A stretch of 32,000 bases of DNA from Candidatus Heimdallarchaeota archaeon. Its GTDB lineage: Archaea; Asgardarchaeota; Heimdallarchaeia; JABLTI01. Of this stretch, positions 1,228-28,185 are shown in pieces (the stretch's first letter is position 1; the number at the start of each line of letters is the position of its first letter). Made by a program: the position numbers and the translations under genes. The notes under the pieces are model-generated. The model did no database searches. It was not told the origin of the DNA and saw nothing but the letters and a program-made list of their open reading frames with translations. The stretch spans positions 2,840 to 34,839 of the forward strand of contig JAUWKS010000033.1 in NCBI GenBank assembly GCA_030614005.1. The letters run 5' to 3'.

Positions 1228-1704
1228 TTATCCACCTGGACTACCGTGGAATGGAGCATATTTGTACATCCAATCTTCCAACATATCTTCTGTGAGAGTT
1301 TCCTTTTCAATCAGTGCTTTTAGCAATGTTTTGAGGAAAGTATGATGTCGAACTTCATCTTTGTGAATTTCACTGATGACAGTTTTCACTGAATCTGAAG
1401 GAGGATCTTTCAATATTTCTTGATAGGTTTCAATGGCTTTTGCTTCCAATTCAATATGTTTCTCAATGGTTGCTTTTATCTCATCAAAACTCTCTTCTTC
1501 GATCAATGGAGTTGGACCTATGAGCATACCTTTCAATGCACCTAAAAGTAAAGCATGTTTCTTAGAGTCCATCGTAATACCTCTAATCAACTCCCTAACA
1601 AGGATATTCTTAATGTTATCAACACTGGCATTGGAAATTTCGATAATCTCTTTTTCCAAAGCTATTTGTTCATCAAGAAACTCAATTAATTTTTCTTCAT
1701 CCAT
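1228..1704 (-). CDS. Ferritin-like/rubrerythrin-type di-iron four-helix-bundle protein
   Basis: Two repeated carboxylate/His modules: E..LE...DSKKH and H..LE...DEVRHH. All-helical and acidic. Confidence 0.75.
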   Translation of the reverse strand: MDEEKLIEFLDEQIALEKEIIEISNASVDNIKNILVRELIRGITMDSKKHALLLGALKGMLIGPTPLIEEESFDEIKATIEKHIELEAKAIETYQEILKDPPSDSVKTVISEIHKDEVRHHTFLKTLLKALIEKETLTEDMLEDWMYKYAPFHGSPGG

Positions 1705-1918
1705 AATGTAACACCTTTTAGCTATTAATTAGTAACAATAACAAACATTCCATTTAAAACCTATTCCTAAATAATCTGAGATAAAAGAGTTTATTTTTTC
1801 TTAGTAAAATAAAATAAATAAACAAATAAATAAATAGTTAACAAAAATCAAGCTGCTGCGATGGATTAAAAAACAGTAAGGGTATAACAAAGATAAGTAA
1901 TAATTCGAGTGTTTGATT

Positions 1919-2077
1919 ATGGTAATAACACCTGATGGTCCTTGGTTTTATCTAATTATCTACGGTAGTTTTATGGTTTTTATTTTTATTGTTGGAATGA
2001 TACTTTCTCTCACTCAAAAGAATAAGGGAAAGGGTAAAGAACAAAAAACAGAAGACGATAACCAGACACCAATTTGA
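1919..2077 (+). CDS. Small single-pass membrane protein (52 aa), below the ORF-track cutoff
   Basis: Manual translation MVITPDGPWFYLIIYGSFMVFIFIVGMILSLTQKNKGKGKEQKTEDDNQTPI: one TM helix followed by a Lys-rich tail. It fills an otherwise empty gap. Confidence 0.55.
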   Translation: MVITPDGPWFYLIIYGSFMVFIFIVGMILSLTQKNKGKGKEQKTEDDNQTPI

Positions 2078-2187
2078 AATCTGATTAATAATCTATTGTA
2101 GAGAAATCCTTTAACTTTAATTTCTTTCACAGAAGCTTTTATTATAGTAAGAGAATTAGTTCCATAGACTAAACTGAGGTTTAAAAA

Positions 2188-2490
2188 ATGCATGAAGATT
2201 TAGACTTTGTAATTGAATCAGGAACTAAAAAACCAGCAGACATAACAATTTACGCATTATCCACTTGCGGTTTTTGTAAAAGTGCTTTGAACTTTCTTCG
2301 CGAGAATGATATTGCTTTCAAATATATCTATGTAGATAAACAATCATCTCAAGTTAAAGTTCAGATTAAGAAAGATTTACGAGATAATTATGAAGAGAGA
2401 TTGGGCTTCCCCTACTGTGTTGTCAATGGTGGAGAAAAAGTTATGGTAGGATTCAAAACAGAAAAATGGGAAAAAGCCTTTCTAGTGTAA
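2188..2490 (+). CDS. Glutaredoxin/NrdH-like thiol-disulfide oxidoreductase
   Basis: YALSTCGFC (CxxC), cis-Pro motif GFP and VGF. Adjacent to the FTR catalytic subunit. Confidence 0.9.
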   Translation: MHEDLDFVIESGTKKPADITIYALSTCGFCKSALNFLRENDIAFKYIYVDKQSSQVKVQIKKDLRDNYEERLGFPYCVVNGGEKVMVGFKTEKWEKAFLV

Positions 2491-2511
2491 TATAATAAAT
2501 CGTACAATAGT

Positions 2512-2871
2512 GTGATGAAGATGCCCGTGCCTAAAAAACTGAAGACCAAAGAAGAAGTCCGAAAATTTGTTGAAATGGTTGCAAATAAACAAGGTTGGTA
2601 TTTGCACCCCGATGAGAAATTTTTAGTTATGTTAATTGAAGGCTTACAAAGTAATTACAATGAACATGGCTATTTTGGTTGTCCTTGTAGGTTATTAGAA
2701 GGTGACAGAGAACACGATAAAGACCTTCTTTGCCCTTGTGACTATTGCAATCCTGATCAATTAGAATATGGTCATTGCTATTGTGGACTCTATTGTACTC
2801 ACGAATTCCATGCTTCTGGTAAGACACCAGACGGAATACCAGAAAGACGACCAGAAGAGAAATGGTTCTGA
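2512..2871 (+). CDS. Ferredoxin-thioredoxin reductase catalytic subunit (FtrC/FDR-like)
   Basis: CPCR-x13-CPC-x12-CYCGLY cysteine pattern of the [4Fe-4S] plus disulfide site. The start may be ATG 2515 or 2521. Confidence 0.93.
   Translation: MMKMPVPKKLKTKEEVRKFVEMVANKQGWYLHPDEKFLVMLIEGLQSNYNEHGYFGCPCRLLEGDREHDKDLLCPCDYCNPDQLEYGHCYCGLYCTHEFHASGKTPDGIPERRPEEKWF
2779..2800 (+). repeat. 22-bp direct repeat, copy 1 (inside the FTR gene, CYCGLYC codons)
   Basis: TATTGTGGACTCTATTGTACTC is identical to 3620-3641. Confidence 0.9.
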
Positions 2872-2898
2872 TAGTCTTTCTAATTTTGATAAAGTGTA

Positions 2899-3546
2899 CT
2901 ATTTTTTCCTTTTAAAATGGATAACTAACATAATCAAAGCTGAAATTATTAATCCAAAGATAACCTTGCTTGTAATAGAAATATTGATTGTTGATACGTA
3001 GGAGAAATCAAAAGATGGTACACCATTTCGTATCCTCATCAATGCTCTTGTTGAATTTAGCATCGTTTCACCATAGCCATAGAGGTATAACCAAAGAATA
3101 TACGTCCCATCTGGGATTATTTCAATTCCCCCTTCATCAAGAAACAAATAACTTACAGATGTTATCTTTCTTTCTCCTGCTGGAATTGTTTCATTCATTT
3201 CTGCCGGGAATATACTACTACAATAGCATTTAAAACGAAAGGTTAGTTTTTCATTCTTTAGATTTATCGAGGCATTCGTTCCAAACATTTGTTCAGGATA
3301 TGTTGGAAATACTAGCTCAATAGGACCATTTGGATTGTTCACCGTTGCATTGGTTGTTATCTCAATAGCTGATTTATTCTCATCACTATAGTCCTCTATC
3401 CATTTCCATTTTATATCAGTAATATCTGTTTTGATATTTTGAAATTCACCACTAGTTTCTAGGATCGGATTAACAATACTATTAAAACAACATACTATAC
3501 CTACAATTACTAGCGATAAAACACTCTTCCTTATCATTCTCCTCAT
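2899..3546 (-). CDS. Hypothetical surface protein (N-terminal signal/TM, beta-rich body, C-terminal TM + KRKK)
   Basis: Hydrophobic N-terminus after basic residues; C-terminus VIFGLIISALIMLVIHFKRKK. Confidence 0.75.
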   Translation of the reverse strand: MRRMIRKSVLSLVIVGIVCCFNSIVNPILETSGEFQNIKTDITDIKWKWIEDYSDENKSAIEITTNATVNNPNGPIELVFPTYPEQMFGTNASINLKNEKLTFRFKCYCSSIFPAEMNETIPAGERKITSVSYLFLDEGGIEIIPDGTYILWLYLYGYGETMLNSTRALMRIRNGVPSFDFSYVSTINISITSKVIFGLIISALIMLVIHFKRKK

Positions 3547-19634: not shown

Positions 19635-21113
19635 ATGGCTCCTGAAAAGAAGATAGTTGAGGCAAAAACATCATTCAAAGATGTTATCAATTCTATGAAC
19701 TATAATATCAAATTAGTTTTTGCTTTCTATATTACGAGTTCTTTAGGTAGAGGTATTTGGATGGGCAACGTTCTTAGCACATACATCTATCTTTTTTCTG
19801 AAAGTGGTGGAGGATTTTTAGGATTAAGTTCTAATGTTATTCTAGGGTTAACTTCAGCCGCTTCAGGAATTACTATGACTCTATTCGTTTTCCCCGCAGG
19901 ATTTATGGCTGATAAGTTCCGACGAGATATTATCCTCAAATCTGCGACAGGCATTGGTATCGCAGCAATGGGATTTCTTATCTTTGGAAATTCAATAATT
20001 TTCATTTTTATTTCATTGTTATTGTGGGGATTGTTTAATGCTTTAGTCCGTCCTTCACTTGAAGCATTGTTTGCTGATTCTGTTGAATCTGGATACCGTT
20101 CAAAGATTTATTCTTGGGGACATTTAGTACGGCAGATAGCTATGGCGCTTGGACCTTTCATTAATATTGGACTATTCTTCATTTTTGGCGATAAATGGGA
20201 TTTAAATATTCTCCGGAGTGTCATGATCGTAGGCTTAGCTATCACATTAATTTCAATTGTTTTGATGTTTTTCTTCAAAGATGACAAAACACTTGGTGAT
20301 GAAAGTGAAGAAATAGCTGAAGATGTTGTTACAATTGCACCAAGCGTTCAACAAAAGGAAGATATCAATGAAAATGGAAGACACTTCAAGAATCGGCTTG
20401 CAAATCTAGATTCGGAGCGGAAAAAGAAACTCATACCGATAATTCTAGTCTCTAGCAATGTAATAATTGGTGTTGGTGCTGGGATGACAGTAAAATATTT
20501 CCCAATATTCTTTATGAATGAATATAACCTATCTCCAGTTTTGTTGCAAGTAGTAATGGGTGCTACTGCATTAGTTACTGGTTTATTTGGAGTTGCTGCA
20601 CAAAAAGCATCGCTGAAATTAGGCCGAGTCCAAACGATATTTTACGTTCAGTTCATTGCTACTGCTTGTTTACTTTTTATTGCTGTGTATCCACCAATTG
20701 CAGTCCTTATTCCTCTGTTTATTCTTAGAGGGGCATTTATGAATGCAGGTCAACCATTAAGTCGATCAATACTGATGGATATGATCCCTAAAACAAACCG
20801 GGGAAAATGGAATTCAGTTGAAGCAATTGCATGGGGTCTCTTTTGGAATGTATCAGCTGTTGCAGGTGGTTTCCTAATTGGCAACTCAAACAGGTACAAT
20901 CTCTGTTTCGTCATCACTACCTTTGTCTATATTTTTGGCATGGTTCCAATTATTATATTAATGCCTTTAGTAGGTAAAGAGAAAGAAGCTAAAATAAAAG
21001 AAAAACTTCTTGAAGATTCAATCTACAATGAGGATGGATTTGATGAAGTTTTTGGAGAATCAGAACATGTTAAAAAAGATGATAGTGAAAATGCTAAAAT
21101 CGAAGTACTATAA
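19635..21113 (+). CDS. Major facilitator superfamily transporter
   Basis: About 12 TM helices in two halves with a charged central loop; motif A-like GFMADKFRR; SRSILMDMIPKTNRGKWNS. Confidence 0.92.
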   Translation: MAPEKKIVEAKTSFKDVINSMNYNIKLVFAFYITSSLGRGIWMGNVLSTYIYLFSESGGGFLGLSSNVILGLTSAASGITMTLFVFPAGFMADKFRRDIILKSATGIGIAAMGFLIFGNSIIFIFISLLLWGLFNALVRPSLEALFADSVESGYRSKIYSWGHLVRQIAMALGPFINIGLFFIFGDKWDLNILRSVMIVGLAITLISIVLMFFFKDDKTLGDESEEIAEDVVTIAPSVQQKEDINENGRHFKNRLANLDSERKKKLIPIILVSSNVIIGVGAGMTVKYFPIFFMNEYNLSPVLLQVVMGATALVTGLFGVAAQKASLKLGRVQTIFYVQFIATACLLFIAVYPPIAVLIPLFILRGAFMNAGQPLSRSILMDMIPKTNRGKWNSVEAIAWGLFWNVSAVAGGFLIGNSNRYNLCFVITTFVYIFGMVPIIILMPLVGKEKEAKIKEKLLEDSIYNEDGFDEVFGESEHVKKDDSENAKIEVL

Positions 21114-21533
21114 ATTACTATTCTTTCAAAATTAGCCATTAGCTATTCGCAAACTTACACAAAAAGTACTAATATAGCTATTTTGCACCTATCGCAAGGC
21201 GAGAAAGATTTTCATCTTCCAATTATTCCTAATATGAAGATGAGAACCCTCAACTCAATTACTCAAGTTTGAACTTTGTTAAAAATTGTAGCTATTAGTT
21301 AATTTATTAACATATACAATTTATTCCCTCAGTTATACTCATTGTAAATTAATCTAATTGTGTGATAGTGTTTCACTATTGTAAATGAAGGAAATTGTTG
21401 TTATAATAGATTTACTTACTATAATTATGAGCGACAAAAAATTCACAAGACTTATATATATCTAGAAAAATACTATCACTCAATATTACTTTGAAAGGAA
21501 GTATTAGAGAGAGATTAGATGTAAGAAATAGAT

Positions 21534-21560
21534 TTTTCTTCGAAATCTTTTCTTCGAAAT
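21534..21560 (+). promoter_or_regulatory. Tandem 13-bp direct repeat (TTTTCTTCGAAAT x2), operator-like
   Basis: Copies at 21534-21546 and 21548-21560 (period 14), each containing the palindrome TTCGAA, ending 13 bp before ATG 21574. Confidence 0.5.
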
Positions 21561-21573
21561 AGGAAATGATAAG

Positions 21574-22746
21574 ATGAAAAAAATATCAACAATTAATACT
21601 TTGCTAGTATTTTTGGTTATAATTGGAACTGTTTTTGCAAATGTGAATGCAATAGTTTCAATAATGCCAATAAATATAGTGGAAAGAGATGTGGAACGAG
21701 TAGACAATAAAACTACTATTAGTGATATAAACGAGTTTGATGTAAAGACATTGACAGAAATTGCTGACTATATTAGTATTCAAGCAGCTCAAAATAATTT
21801 TGAGATTTCTGCTATGGTATATTCCTCAGGATTATTATTTGAATCTGACAACTCCCTAATAATAATAGGTCATGGACATTTTAGTTCTAATGATCAATAT
21901 TTTATTGCTGATTATTCAACAAATAGAATTAGCAAAATGGCTGAAAATAAAGAAGTGGTTGCTTTACTTGCTTGCTATTCCAATAATATTGGATTAGAAA
22001 ATGACTTACAATTAACCTATGCAGATACAATCGATCTAATATCTGCGATACAAGATTTATTTAATCTACTAAGTTGGACAGAAAGCTCCCAACTTAATCC
22101 TATAAAGAATATACGACTTTTTGATTTGGATCCTGGACCCGGTGGATATGTTGAAGCAGTTTACTTGATGAATGGTGTAAGATATGCTCATTCCAGAAAC
22201 AAGTTTTGGAATCTATATAGTGGACCTGCACGAGCAAATTTAGCAGCATACATGCAAAATAATAAATATACACTTGTAGAATTAACCTTTTCTGGGATTT
22301 TTGCTGTTGAACAAGGAAGAAATACTGGTATATATGAATTAGAATACCATAAAGTTACTTATGATACTTGGCTTACAATTGAAGGAGATACTAAAACGTA
22401 TCTTAAAATTACTAATGTTAAACACAACGGAGTAAGAAAAAGAACAATGAATCGATTAATAAAACTTGATAAAGTAAATGCATTACTTGAAGCAAATTTC
22501 ACTGGTGCTGGTCTTATAGGTTCTCTAGATCATCTCGGAGATATTTTCTTAGCTATTGGCATTGCATTACTTACTTCGAGTACATTATTGATAATTGCTG
22601 CTAAGACTGCAACTTCTCTAGCTGCAGCAGTAACTGCTGCTTTGATTAAATTGGCTGCAGTAGCATTATGGTTTGCTGTTGCTTGCTTTGCTATTGCATT
22701 AATGCTTGCAATATCTTGTGTAATACTTCAACTCTGTTGGATTTAG
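21574..22746 (+). CDS. Secreted protein: caspase/gingipain-like (HG...AC) domain + central domain + Ala-rich hydrophobic C-terminus; candidate toxin/bacteriocin precursor
   Basis: Signal peptide; SLIIIGHG (His100) and VVALLACYS (Cys134); DPGPGG linker; an ~80-aa hydrophobic C-terminus with no basic tail. The function is inference. Confidence 0.6.
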   Translation: MKKISTINTLLVFLVIIGTVFANVNAIVSIMPINIVERDVERVDNKTTISDINEFDVKTLTEIADYISIQAAQNNFEISAMVYSSGLLFESDNSLIIIGHGHFSSNDQYFIADYSTNRISKMAENKEVVALLACYSNNIGLENDLQLTYADTIDLISAIQDLFNLLSWTESSQLNPIKNIRLFDLDPGPGGYVEAVYLMNGVRYAHSRNKFWNLYSGPARANLAAYMQNNKYTLVELTFSGIFAVEQGRNTGIYELEYHKVTYDTWLTIEGDTKTYLKITNVKHNGVRKRTMNRLIKLDKVNALLEANFTGAGLIGSLDHLGDIFLAIGIALLTSSTLLIIAAKTATSLAAAVTAALIKLAAVALWFAVACFAIALMLAISCVILQLCWI

Positions 22747-22771
22747 AAAATAAAAAGGAGGAAATGTCAAT

Positions 22772-23212
22772 TTGAGTACTATAGCTAATGAACAAACAAA
22801 GTTACAAAAGAATGCATTTGTTGTTTACATGGTTTTAGCAATAAGTCAACTAATGCTTCTTATACTTTCAGCGATTTTTCGAGCTATAACCAAGAAGCAA
22901 TATCATGATGAACTTACAACACTAAATCATCAGTATTATTATAGCTTTACATTCTTCATGAATCTTGCAACATATCTATTTTTCTTTGCAATGGTGATTT
23001 ATTTCAGCTTTTTAAGTTCTAAAATTGAAAGTATAAAAAATGTTGATATAGATAAACTAGATTTCGGAAATGCATTAGAAGAGATATTTAGACCTACAAG
23101 TCCAAAATTCAAACGAAGAAAGATTCTCTTAGTAATCGTTCTAGTACTTGCATTTCTAGTAATGATATGTTCTCAAATCTATATACAAATTGGTATTGTG
23201 TTTATGTTGTAG
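22772..23212 (+). CDS. Small three-TM membrane protein; candidate immunity protein
   Basis: AGGAGG at 22756-22761 and a TTG start 25 bp after the upstream stop; three hydrophobic segments. Confidence 0.6.
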   Translation: MSTIANEQTKLQKNAFVVYMVLAISQLMLLILSAIFRAITKKQYHDELTTLNHQYYYSFTFFMNLATYLFFFAMVIYFSFLSSKIESIKNVDIDKLDFGNALEEIFRPTSPKFKRRKILLVIVLVLAFLVMICSQIYIQIGIVFML

Positions 23213-23645
23213 CTTATTTTAGAAGGCTATTCGTCTAAATTTTTTTTCTTTTTTCTGGGAATTAACTGCTTATGTTAACAGATAAATAATTACGACAATT
23301 TTATAACAAAGTTCCAACTTACACAATTTGAGAAGAAAAAGACTTATCTGGACATTCTTTGTTCTAACACTTATTTCTCTAACTGCAACGCAAAGTTACT
23401 TGCTCATTATTCTATTTGTTGTGTTATGATATTCACATTTGGGGTAGTATTCAACCCAAATATCTTTTTTTTTCTTCTTTCAGCAATAATTTTTTTGTAT
23501 CTCCGTCTTTTTAGAACGAAAAAAATTGATGGAATAAGTATACTATGTAACGCTATTCCACCAAAAAACTATTCCTAAAATTGCAGGCATTTTTTCTTTA
23601 TTAACAATAAGATTGTAGTTTGTTAATTGTTGTATCTATTATTGT

Positions 23646-23789
23646 ATGATTTCAATCATCATATTAGTACCTTTAGTAGGTAAAGAAAAAGAAGAACTAC
23701 TTGAAGATTCATTCGACAGTGTGGATGGATTTGAAGATGTTTTTGGAGACTCAGAACCAATTAAAAAAGATTCTAGTGATGTTAGTTGA
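23646..23789 (+). pseudogene. Relic copy of the 3' end of the MFS gene
   Basis: Translates MISIIILVPLVGKEKEELLEDSFDSVDGFEDVFGDSEPIKKDSSDVS* versus MFS C-terminus MVPIIILMPLVGKEKEAKIKEKLLEDSIYNEDGFDEVFGESEHVKKDDSE. Exact 17-mer CCTTTAGTAGGTAAAGA at 20964 and 23670. Confidence 0.9.
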
Positions 23790-23852
23790 AAGCAAGGCAC
23801 CTAATCATGTTAAGCCTTTTGTAGATTTCTTAATCAATTGCTTTATGATTCC

Positions 23853-25567: not shown

Positions 25568-26398
25568 TCATTTCTTTTTCTTCTTTGAATATAAAATACT
25601 TGCAAAAGTCATTGAAATTATCCCAACGATAATTGGAAATATCTGCACAGGTGTAGTAGCAGTGCAACCAATTCTTAATGCATTGTAATCGAAATCACTG
25701 TCTGCTTGTCTAATCTGCGAATAGATTATCATTGCAACAGCATTATCGTCTTTATAATAGAAGAAGATTTCAATATCATCATTGAGTGCTAAAGCAGGGT
25801 CTTTTCCAGGAGTGTCTCCAGAATCTAAAGGAAATTCGAGTTCGTATTCATCATAGTTTATTTTTGGATGAACTTTTCCTACACTGTCTTCAGTACCAGA
25901 AACGCTTACGTCATCCTCCCATATAAGACCAGCAACATCTTTTGTAACACCATCAATTGAATCGTTGTTGTGTGCATAAATGTATTTTATATCTTGTTCT
26001 TTGCCATAGCCCCAACCTTCATCGTATATTCGAACTAGTGGTTCAGCTGTATTTGTTTTCAATACGATTGCTAGCTGGTCATCTCCTTCGCCTTTATCAG
26101 TATCAGGAACGGTAACTGCAAAAATCAAGTTGTTTTCTTCAGTATACAAAGTCTTTACTACTATGATAATTGTATCAGCTTGGTTGTCCAAATTGTAGAG
26201 AGTGATATTATAGGTCAAAGCAGGTGCCCATTCTGTGGTACCAATATGTCCATCTATTACAGGTGGAGTAGAGTTATAGCAAGTTAATATAAGGTCTTTT
26301 TTTACAGGAGCTTTTATAACAGCTACTGGAATTAAACATAGGAATATTAAACTAAAAATTATCCCACTTATAGTTGATTTTCTTAAAAATGGTTTCAA
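25568..26398 (-). CDS. Surface protein with a CBM9/DOMON-like domain and a C-terminal TM + KKKKK
   Basis: Signal peptide; PPVIDG...EW and YELEFPL; TTPVQIFPIIVGIISMTFASILYSKKKKK; GGAGG SD and TTG start. Confidence 0.7.
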   Translation of the reverse strand: MKPFLRKSTISGIIFSLIFLCLIPVAVIKAPVKKDLILTCYNSTPPVIDGHIGTTEWAPALTYNITLYNLDNQADTIIIVVKTLYTEENNLIFAVTVPDTDKGEGDDQLAIVLKTNTAEPLVRIYDEGWGYGKEQDIKYIYAHNNDSIDGVTKDVAGLIWEDDVSVSGTEDSVGKVHPKINYDEYELEFPLDSGDTPGKDPALALNDDIEIFFYYKDDNAVAMIIYSQIRQADSDFDYNALRIGCTATTPVQIFPIIVGIISMTFASILYSKKKKK

Positions 26399-27460: not shown

Positions 27461-28060
27461 TTAAGATTTTTCTTGGCTTTTCATTTTTCTTATTTTTTCA
27501 ATGAACACTTTAACATCCTTTGGATTCTTAAGAATTAGATAATTGTCAGTTCCGAGTGCTTGTTTTACCTCTTCAATTATTCCTTTGATTTTGTAAACTT
27601 TATATCTAATACTAAATGATGATAGCTCATAAATTGCATACAAAGGTTTCTCTTTCGTGCCACTTTCCTCAATTCTCTTAGGCAGATGAGTTGATCTATG
27701 AAAAGTTAATTTTGTATTTCTTGATAATGTTCGAGCAACAATTCTCCATAATGAAATGTATAAAGGTAAATCTAAAACAATAGCAAAAGTTGCTTGAGGT
27801 AAAAGCATATCACGTACTTTTGAGTAATTACCATCGATAACCCATGATTTTCTAGAAAGCTCTTTTTTGACTATTTTACGAAATGCTTTCTTTGTTGGCA
27901 TTGTCCAATCTGGAAACCAAAATAAATCATCCAAATGAATATAATCTATATAAAGAATTTCACCCAATGATTTGGCTAAGGTGGTTTTACCACTACCCGA
28001 AGCACCATAGATAACTATTCGATTAAAATTAACCATTGAGCTATTCACACTCACATCCAA
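27461..28060 (-). CDS. P-loop kinase, adenylate kinase/FlaR (topology modulation protein)-like
   Basis: RIVIYGASGSGKTTLA, HLDDLFWFPDW, WVIDGNY. Likely start is ATG 28036. Confidence 0.85.
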   Translation of the reverse strand: MDVSVNSSMVNFNRIVIYGASGSGKTTLAKSLGEILYIDYIHLDDLFWFPDWTMPTKKAFRKIVKKELSRKSWVIDGNYSKVRDMLLPQATFAIVLDLPLYISLWRIVARTLSRNTKLTFHRSTHLPKRIEESGTKEKPLYAIYELSSFSIRYKVYKIKGIIEEVKQALGTDNYLILKNPKDVKVFIEKIRKMKSQEKS

Positions 28061-28185
28061 AAATTACTAATATATCTATTTTACGTTTATTAAAAAAAAA
28101 GGAAAAATAATACTGAAGAGATAAAAAAAATGGAAGAGAAAAGGAGCATTCCTTTCTCTCGAAACTCTTTTCCATTTACGAACAG

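Follow-up and report, generated by a model that had tools for sequence, protein, structure and literature searches.

The stretch of DNA analysed here, called the window throughout, comprises 32,000 nt of contig JAUWKS010000033.1 (positions 2,840 to 34,839, forward strand) from Candidatus Heimdallarchaeota archaeon assembly GCA_030614005.1. It carries a compact two-gene cassette, of which the first gene encodes P0001, a protein with a conserved His/Cys-containing head and a variable, hydrophobic tail, and the second encodes P0002, a small membrane protein that we call the partner. We suggest, with a probability that we place at about one in two, that the pair represents a polymorphic membrane effector with its cognate immunity or recognition partner. 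In its genomic behaviour the cassette resembles a conflict system, in that its alleles re-assort, its partners are cognate to particular tails, partner genes occur in orphan arrays, and the unit is mobile. Within the effector reading, toxicity, protection, binding of the partner, the way in which a target cell would be reached and any self-cleavage are inferred. An earlier sequence-only reading of the DNA, made without database searches, had proposed a self-cleaving precursor that releases a pore-former, paired with an immunity protein and carried by a probable Asgard archaeon; the lineage was correctly recognized and is more exactly Heimdall-group Asgard.

The evidence begins with the way in which members of the P0001 family are assembled. 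(In what follows, G000 is the window's own genome, of 3.6 Mb; G010 is its closest relative, GCA_018238155.1; L with a number denotes a locus of the family, and WIN the window copy.) All full-length members share a single architecture, which consists of an N-terminal helix, the head, a Gly-rich linker, a beta domain and a hydrophobic C-terminal hairpin. The mean pairwise identity is 55% for the head versus 30% for the tail, and both the alignment and the comparison of paralogues place the border between the conserved and variable halves of P0001 at the LDPGPGG junction. When the paralogues of a single genome, G010, are compared as DNA, the last 55 nt of the leader and the codons of the signal peptide are about 100% identical, a value that falls to 70-90% in the head and to 35-50% beyond the linker; the DNA coding for residues 1-33 is 96-100% identical among paralogues that are otherwise about 40% identical as proteins. 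WIN and L001 share 82% identity in the head, 33% in the tail and 21% in the partner, while the tail and partner of WIN are nearest to those of L008 (46% and 37%, respectively). For P0006 and P0016, the tails are 66% identical and the heads 53%. The nearest neighbour by head differs from the nearest neighbour by tail for 25 of 28 proteins, and it follows that heads and tails have different histories, with the break located at the conserved L..LDPG junction.

The partners track the tails. Over nine loci, tail distances correlate with partner distances (Mantel r = 0.50, p = 0.001), and the value for head versus partner distances is r = 0.11. The polymorphic signature that the sequence-only reading had named as a check is thus present, with a conserved N-terminal half and a variable C-terminal half that co-varies with the partner and re-assorts. 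There is a gene for a three-transmembrane protein of 128-172 aa downstream of every family gene examined, relatives with different heads included, so that the small membrane gene first noticed behind P0001 is a constant companion of the family. Hydropathy analysis of P0002 gives three hydrophobic segments, and the 17 partners collected have in common a basic loop motif, (D/N)F..I..E...PT....K.RK, which precedes the third transmembrane helix, at a mean identity of about 27%. The gap between the genes for P0001 and P0002 is 25 nt; this gap, the reading frames, the AGGAGG and the other sequence features described at the outset are all present where they had been placed. Complex prediction for the P0001 tail (residues 198-390) with the partner gave a score of 0.28 against a mark of 0.32, which is not evidence either way. 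Feature searches of an atlas with the partner and with the tail returned nothing usable.

Partner genes also occur in excess of main genes, and in places where no main gene is found. Partner matches versus main-gene matches number 12 versus 7 in G010, 3 versus 2 in G005 and 2 versus 1 in G007, while G016 has a partner only; the stand-alone partners were confirmed on reading of the loci. Tandem partner paralogues are found at L002 (three copies), L008 (two) and L045 (two). Orphan modules consisting of a tail fragment plus a partner are located at G000:C40 and G010:C29, the latter sharing 56% and 51% identity with an intact module in another species. The former (G000:C40:34797-35607, corresponding to L016 1492-2314) is a 120-aa C-terminal fragment that adjoins an acetyltransferase gene and has an intact partner of 160 aa behind it, and its full version exists as P0009 plus P0015 on metagenome contig L005, with the partner 96% identical. 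P0002 itself is 58% identical to an orphan, start-less copy in the array of another species (L002). A third partner homologue of the window's own genome, at G000:C95:35253-35752, is frameshifted over two frames and stands without a family gene next to it. Arrays of immunity genes and orphan modules are characteristic of polymorphic toxin loci. At L008 there is in addition a repeat of about 74 nt with an internal palindrome (26-82, 792-865 and 2815-2887), found upstream of the main gene, between the two partner genes and past the second partner gene, and it resembles a cassette boundary.

The family is small and lineage-restricted. A word-indexed search with P0001 found six relatives at 39-55% identity, and an exhaustive HMMER search through 1.84 billion representatives yielded no more than 32 proteins at E <= 0.001; repeating the homologue search with the family alignment added no further members. 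The named members are all annotated as 'hypothetical protein' and come from Candidatus Heimdallarchaeota or 'Asgard group archaeon', and a literature search located no description of the family. Distribution is patchy. The family is present in 6 of 31 relative genomes, at one to seven copies each where found, and in 200 genomes taken across the phylum it was seen only in the window's class, in two families of that class. A head profile searched against the six-frame translation of G000 detected no second head. One further open reading frame, of 245 aa on G040:C174, matches the tail only. Four family copies on G010 contigs (L003, L004, L017 and L045) begin at a distance of 110-145 nt from the end of a contig. 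Assemblies apparently break at the near-identical region of leader and signal peptide, and copy numbers from draft genomes are therefore probably underestimates.

The location of the cassette indicates that it is mobile. In the window, copies of about 165 nt from the 3′ end of a major facilitator superfamily (MFS) gene, 76-80% identical to each other, lie on the two sides of the cassette (Table 1), and the final residues of the orphan copy resemble the end of the G010 MFS orthologue. In G010 the MFS gene is followed directly by a GMP-synthase gene, and in G009 the order is HtrA, MFS, SnoaL, GMP synthase; neither genome has the cassette at this site. Both genes are flanked by a 64-nt inverted repeat (E = 4e-8), with no second such pair anywhere in the 3.6-Mb genome; its arms may be the terminal repeats of an element that is non-autonomous, or they may mark a site of inversion. 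What had been described as a horizontally acquired island is accordingly an inserted cassette, marked by a duplicated gene end, inverted repeats and an empty site in G010 and G009. A similar arrangement is found in the closed Heimdallarchaeum-type genome G026, where the copy at L013 (G026:C1) is bracketed by a duplicated 3′ end of a P-type ATPase gene (344 nt, 90% identical, at 714-1057 and 2994-3335). Because host-gene ends are duplicated at both the MFS and the P-type ATPase loci, insertion at a gene end with provision of a replacement end is recurrent. The 2.5-kb unit contains no integrase or transposase. Contigs of four metagenome runs, from cold-seep and marine-sediment samples of at least three studies, carry the cassette at about 99% identity; no contig of the four runs joins across the cassette, and a variant without it was not seen. 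Among the sequencing runs listed as containing the cassette there was no RNA run. The neighbouring genes vary among loci and are housekeeping or unrelated genes, and no secretion or delivery apparatus is linked to the family, only a Sec-type signal. Two other observations concern the surrounding DNA. Beside a G026 copy, L010 3810-4154 (minus strand) encodes a CxxC...CPxC zinc-ribbon fragment that is of TnpB/OrfB type by eye. In the window, the 71 nt past the MFS stop codon (21114-21184) are 81% identical to 28011-28082, at the gene junction 27461-28060 / 28186, and the shared stretch may be a terminator or a repeat.

The leader ahead of P0001 is variable. Its repeat unit of about 15 nt is present in about seven units in the G010 paralogue L001 (3046-3140) versus two in the window, and 14 nt at 21534 are absent from one metagenome strain. 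It is possible that the number of repeats acts as a switch of expression. All copies in G010 have leaders that are 91-96% identical to one another, and the leader is also found upstream of an unrelated gene for a Big_7-like surface protein (L001 1-71).

Table 1. Features of the cassette and its flanks in the window (positions counted from the first nucleotide of the window)
Feature	Position	Strand	Basis or remarks
MFS gene 3′ end, left copy of the duplication	20945-21110	+	MFS gene 19635-21113; Pfam MFS_1
Inverted repeat, left arm (64 nt, imperfect)	21265-21328	.	80% match to the reverse complement of 23257-23320
5′ leader, two copies of a ~15-nt tandem repeat (TTCTTCGAAATCTT-like)	21535-21563	+	Shortly upstream of the P0001 start codon
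P0001, main gene, 390 aa	21574-22746	+	Signal/N-terminal helix, His/Cys head, Gly linker, beta domain, helical hairpin
P0001 residues 1-33, signal peptide or N-terminal membrane helix	21574-21672	+	Hydropathy (hydrophobic segment, residues 3-33); paralogue comparison
P0001 residues 52-189, conserved alpha/beta head	21727-22140	+	Invariant alignment columns; AlphaFold2 confidence (pLDDT) ~95
H100 codon (invariant G99-H100-G101)	21871-21873	+	Inside the head
C134 codon (with S136)	21973-21975	+	Inside the head
P0001 residues 185-191, LDPGPGG junction, Gly-rich linker next	22126-22146	+	G188 and upstream L182 invariant, D186 nearly so
P0001 residues 198-305, highly variable beta-rich domain with one helix, predicted to adjoin the membrane	22165-22488	+	AlphaFold2; mean identity 31%
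P0001 residues 311-390, Ala/Gly/Ile/Leu-rich two-helix hairpin, predicted membrane-inserted	22504-22743	+	In every homologue; mean identity 27%
AGGAGG ribosome-binding site	22756-22761	+	10 nt ahead of the TTG start of the partner
P0002, partner gene, 146 aa, TTG start	22772-23212	+	Three transmembrane helices; basic loop ahead of the third
Inverted repeat, right arm	23257-23320	.	The pair flanks both genes
MFS gene 3′ end, orphan second copy	23640-23790	+	One readable frame to the stop codon

For the structure of P0001 we relied on AlphaFold2 (AF2), which gave a predicted local distance difference test (pLDDT) value of 48 with a 7-sequence alignment, and a mean of 82.6 with the 35-row family alignment, rising to about 95 over the head. 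The model of the head consists of a helix (57-73), three strands (80-83, 87-90 and 94-98) leading into GHG, a small hairpin, a helix (116-122), a strand (128-132) followed by AC, another strand (145-147), and a final helix (155-166). The head is followed by a Gly linker modelled as disordered and then by a beta-rich domain at 203-297, and the C-terminus forms a pair of helices, each about 35 residues long (311-345 and 351-389). The C-terminal 80 residues contain three Cys. The absence of a basic tail, in which P0001 had been set apart from the anchored surface proteins of the window, is real, at least one other such protein (25568-26398, minus strand) ending in KKKKK. A probable explanation is that P0001 is anchored by a C-terminal hairpin that turns at Lys344 on the cytoplasmic side and leaves the C-terminus outside.

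A mechanism can be envisaged on this basis. The 390-aa protein would be exported through its N-terminal signal sequence, and its last 80 residues would insert as a helical hairpin with the Lys turn inside and the C-terminus outside, thereby placing the beta domain and the His/Cys head on the cell surface. Tail types, each made up of a beta domain and a hairpin, are many and deeply diverged, re-assort with the conserved head by recombination at L..LDPG, and each move with their own three-transmembrane partner. The tail with its hairpin would act on membranes as the effector, the partner would serve as its cognate immunity or recognition protein and neutralise the tail inside the membrane, and the head would be a conserved thiol-enzyme-like domain used for processing, for release, or for action on the target surface. 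The role of the system would most likely be antagonism or self/non-self discrimination.

A module of effector and cognate partner fits the data better than does a housekeeping surface anchor, and we prefer it because of the re-assortment of tails, the tracking of tails by partners, the partner excess and arrays, the orphans, the mobility and the patchiness. There are, nevertheless, a number of points that weigh against it. Searches of Pfam, NCBIfam and the PDB, together with the feature searches, revealed no domain like a known toxin or immunity protein, and the sequence searches of the first three gave nothing significant for either P0001 or P0002. The tails all have one architecture rather than being unrelated toxin domains; the anticipated finding of different C-termini in homologues therefore holds for their deep divergence and fails for their kind. 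The modelled hairpin is bare, with no soluble shield, and P0001 should therefore stay in the membrane of its producer; such a membrane-bound protein could act in trans only through contact, by way of vesicles or after release by proteolysis, and apart from the Sec-type signal no means of release or delivery is visible. Physical linkage alone could cause the correlation of tails with partners over the nine loci, and membrane segments and linker-proximal domains evolve fast anyway. The decayed orphans (the start-less copy in L002 and the frameshifted G000:C95) may be debris rather than maintained immunity genes. Finally, tail and partner are also found together with a different head, a fact that a generic anchor would explain just as well.

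This last point leads to the rival that survives best, although we consider it rather unlikely: that the cassette is a non-antagonistic surface module, in which a generic anchor of two subunits, built from the beta domain and hairpin together with the partner, displays exchangeable ectodomains. Its fast evolution would then come from weak constraint, or from viruses that bind surface proteins. Two relatives, L015 (491 aa; 1492-2967, minus strand) and P0037 (712 aa, with two repeats), have a different, Pfam-less, beta-rich domain as head and keep the beta domain and hairpin, and L015 also has a 144-aa partner; the His/Cys head is therefore not obligatory for the tail-partner unit. A generic anchor would also account for a bare hairpin integral to the producer's membrane, for a head that is the best conserved part, as expected of an enzyme, for the lack of likeness to known toxins, and for the occurrence of the leader upstream of the unrelated surface-protein gene in L001. 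It does not, however, predict tandem partner arrays, stand-alone partners in genomes that lack the main gene, or orphan modules, nor does it predict deep allelic tail types that re-assort among heads. Viral pressure, moreover, should vary the outermost part, the head, the most, and not the parts embedded in or near the membrane.

A narrower scenario, to which we give a low probability, is one of self/non-self recognition or contact-dependent antagonism, in which the matching of tail hairpins with partners in apposed or exchanged membranes would decide between tolerance and harm among neighbouring cells. Protrusions, vesicles or transient fusion would provide the route, and the genes would travel as an integrase-less cassette that restores the 3′ ends of the membrane-protein genes that it invades.

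The full model of the sequence-only reading is somewhat less probable again. It holds that a clan CD autoprotease cuts near LDPG and frees a soluble pore-former, or archaeocin, against which the partner gives immunity, and it was built on the two motifs of the head, LIIIGHG (H100) and VVALLACYS (C134), which it assigned to the caspase-hemoglobinase fold. These motifs are not due to chance, since G99, H100, G101, L131, C134, S136, L182 and G188 are invariant in the alignment of 28 full-length homologues down to about 20% identity, with D113, Y109 and D186 nearly invariant. The conservation of H100 and C134 that the model called for is thus complete. A strand followed by GHG and a strand followed by ACxS, with a joining helix, is the clan CD pattern. 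In P0001 the hhhhGHG and hhhhACxS motifs are 34 residues apart, and the AF2 model has H100 directly past strand 94-98 and C134 past strand 128-132, with helix 116-122 joining the two strands; this unit would be compatible with a dyad at adjacent strand ends. At the level of motif there is also agreement with clan CD, in that His-Gly and Ala-Cys are each at the end of a hydrophobic strand. The L..LDPG junction is the most conserved motif besides the dyad and would be a natural position for a cleavage site, and all of the polymorphic evidence for an effector and cognate partner applies to this model as well.

Comparisons with known peptidases, however, did not extend the resemblance. Pfam gave no family at E <= 1 for 28 members, clan CD included, and a comparison by hhalign of the head profile with 13 Peptidase_C14 domains from Heimdall genomes placed the motifs in register but with P = 0.36 and a probability below 1%. 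The fold searches were run on the whole-protein model, so that the head itself was barely probed; on that footing, Foldseek found nothing at E < 0.03 in the PDB, only weak PAS/sensor-plus-helix rows over residues 215-385 (E 0.003-0.07) in the AFDB clusters, and no match in AFDB Swiss-Prot, and none of the three gave a row for caspase, legumain, gingipain or the MARTX cysteine protease domain (CPD). A shape search of the atlas gave template-modelling (TM) scores below 0.3, and the VIA-align rows were dominated by generic helical hairpins matching the C-terminal hairpin. The atlas feature search with the head returned unnamed clusters (0.94), DUF6345 (0.88) and DUF6642 (0.86). Over the C-terminal hairpin, PDB profile rows for the hydrophobic-hairpin translocators and toxins AopB, MakA and Nhe L1 (E 1.6-3.7) were rejected as compositional. 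The order of elements ahead of the His strand, a helix and three consecutive strands, is unlike the beta-alpha-beta-alpha order of caspases. Of the proposed caspase-hemoglobinase fold there remains an invariant dyad motif after strands, with no match in Pfam, the Peptidase_C14 profile comparison or Foldseek, and the placement of the head in clan CD is unproven. Two further considerations count against the archaeocin model, namely that the head-swapped relatives, which have no protease, keep the tail and partner, and that a free, bare hydrophobic hairpin of 80 residues would be insoluble.

The weakest rival, a cis-acting suicide or addiction module (abortive infection, or a membrane toxin-antitoxin system) in which the head senses virus or stress, the hairpin depolarises the cell's own membrane and the partner restrains it, would suit the two-gene operon, the mobile cassette, the patchy distribution, the presence of the hairpin already in the producer's membrane, and the fast evolution of a virus arms race, but it is very unlikely, as the Pfam and NCBIfam searches found no defence or toxin-antitoxin family (PADLOC was not searched), arrays and partners without a main gene are unexpected for a toxin-matched antitoxin, and an exported ectodomain is an unusual architecture among toxin-antitoxin systems.

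If, as we prefer, the tail is an effector and the partner its immunity protein, the cassette would, as far as we have found, be the first effector-immunity system of polymorphic type to be described from Asgard archaea, and would comprise a new effector fold and a new immunity fold. In its small, invariant His/Cys head there would also be a new candidate for a thiol enzyme. To our knowledge, almost nothing is known of competition or recognition among Asgard archaea, which are the closest prokaryotic relatives of eukaryotes. Further leads are provided by the gene-end insertion with a duplicated host 3′ end at two independent loci, and by the variable-number repeat of the leader. The finding is best called a family with new folds, undescribed in the libraries and papers searched, that belongs to a known kind, that of polymorphic effector/immunity-like systems, in a lineage from which no characterised system of this kind is known.

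Among known systems, the pore-forming colicins (E1, Ia and A types) offer one comparison. Their active element is an Ala-rich hydrophobic hairpin, which is blocked by immunity proteins with three to four transmembrane segments. P0001 and P0002 likewise combine an Ala-rich hairpin with an adjacent small polytopic membrane protein, the cognate pairs diversify, and specificity would lie in helix-helix contacts within the membrane. The colicin hairpin, however, is buried in a soluble 10-helix bundle and reaches its targets through outer-membrane receptors, whereas the hairpin of P0001 is bare (two helices only in the AF2 model), follows a Sec-type signal and belongs to an archaeal host with one membrane, and there is no similarity of sequence or fold. 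A second comparison is with IdsD-IdsE of Proteus mirabilis, a polymorphic self-recognition pair whose variable specificity regions are in or near transmembrane segments and whose cognate binding takes place in the membrane; IdsD is delivered by a type VI secretion system. That pair is not homologous to ours and belongs to another domain of life. For the head, the comparison is with clan CD peptidases (C14, C13 legumain, C25 gingipain and the C80 CPD of MARTX), which have a His-Gly/Ala-Cys dyad with strand-helix-strand between, the dyad spacing of gingipain being 34 residues as well. The head differs from these in lacking a profile or fold match, in its size of only about 135 residues, and in an N-terminal half made up of a helix and a three-strand run.

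The bacterial polymorphic toxins include CdiA-CT/CdiI, Rhs and LXG proteins, the last represented by TspA with TsaI immunity arrays (Zhang et al. 2012, PMC3482391, as cited in PMC6393860). The cassette is like these in its conserved N-terminus, junction motif, variable C-terminus and co-varying downstream partner, and also in its partner arrays, its orphan modules of C-terminal fragment plus partner, and its patchy, multi-copy distribution. It is unlike them in having one tail architecture, no known toxin domain, no nearby delivery genes, a length of only 390 aa, and heads that are swapped. An archaeal precedent is the hypervariable Ig-domain module of Thermococcales, a lineage-restricted system for which a role in conflict or self/non-self recognition has been proposed from comparative genomics (PMC8416519). 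Its proteins are unrelated to ours, consisting of a large Ig-domain protein and varied downstream genes in another lineage; what the two modules have in common is that both are archaeal, lineage-restricted and hypervariable.

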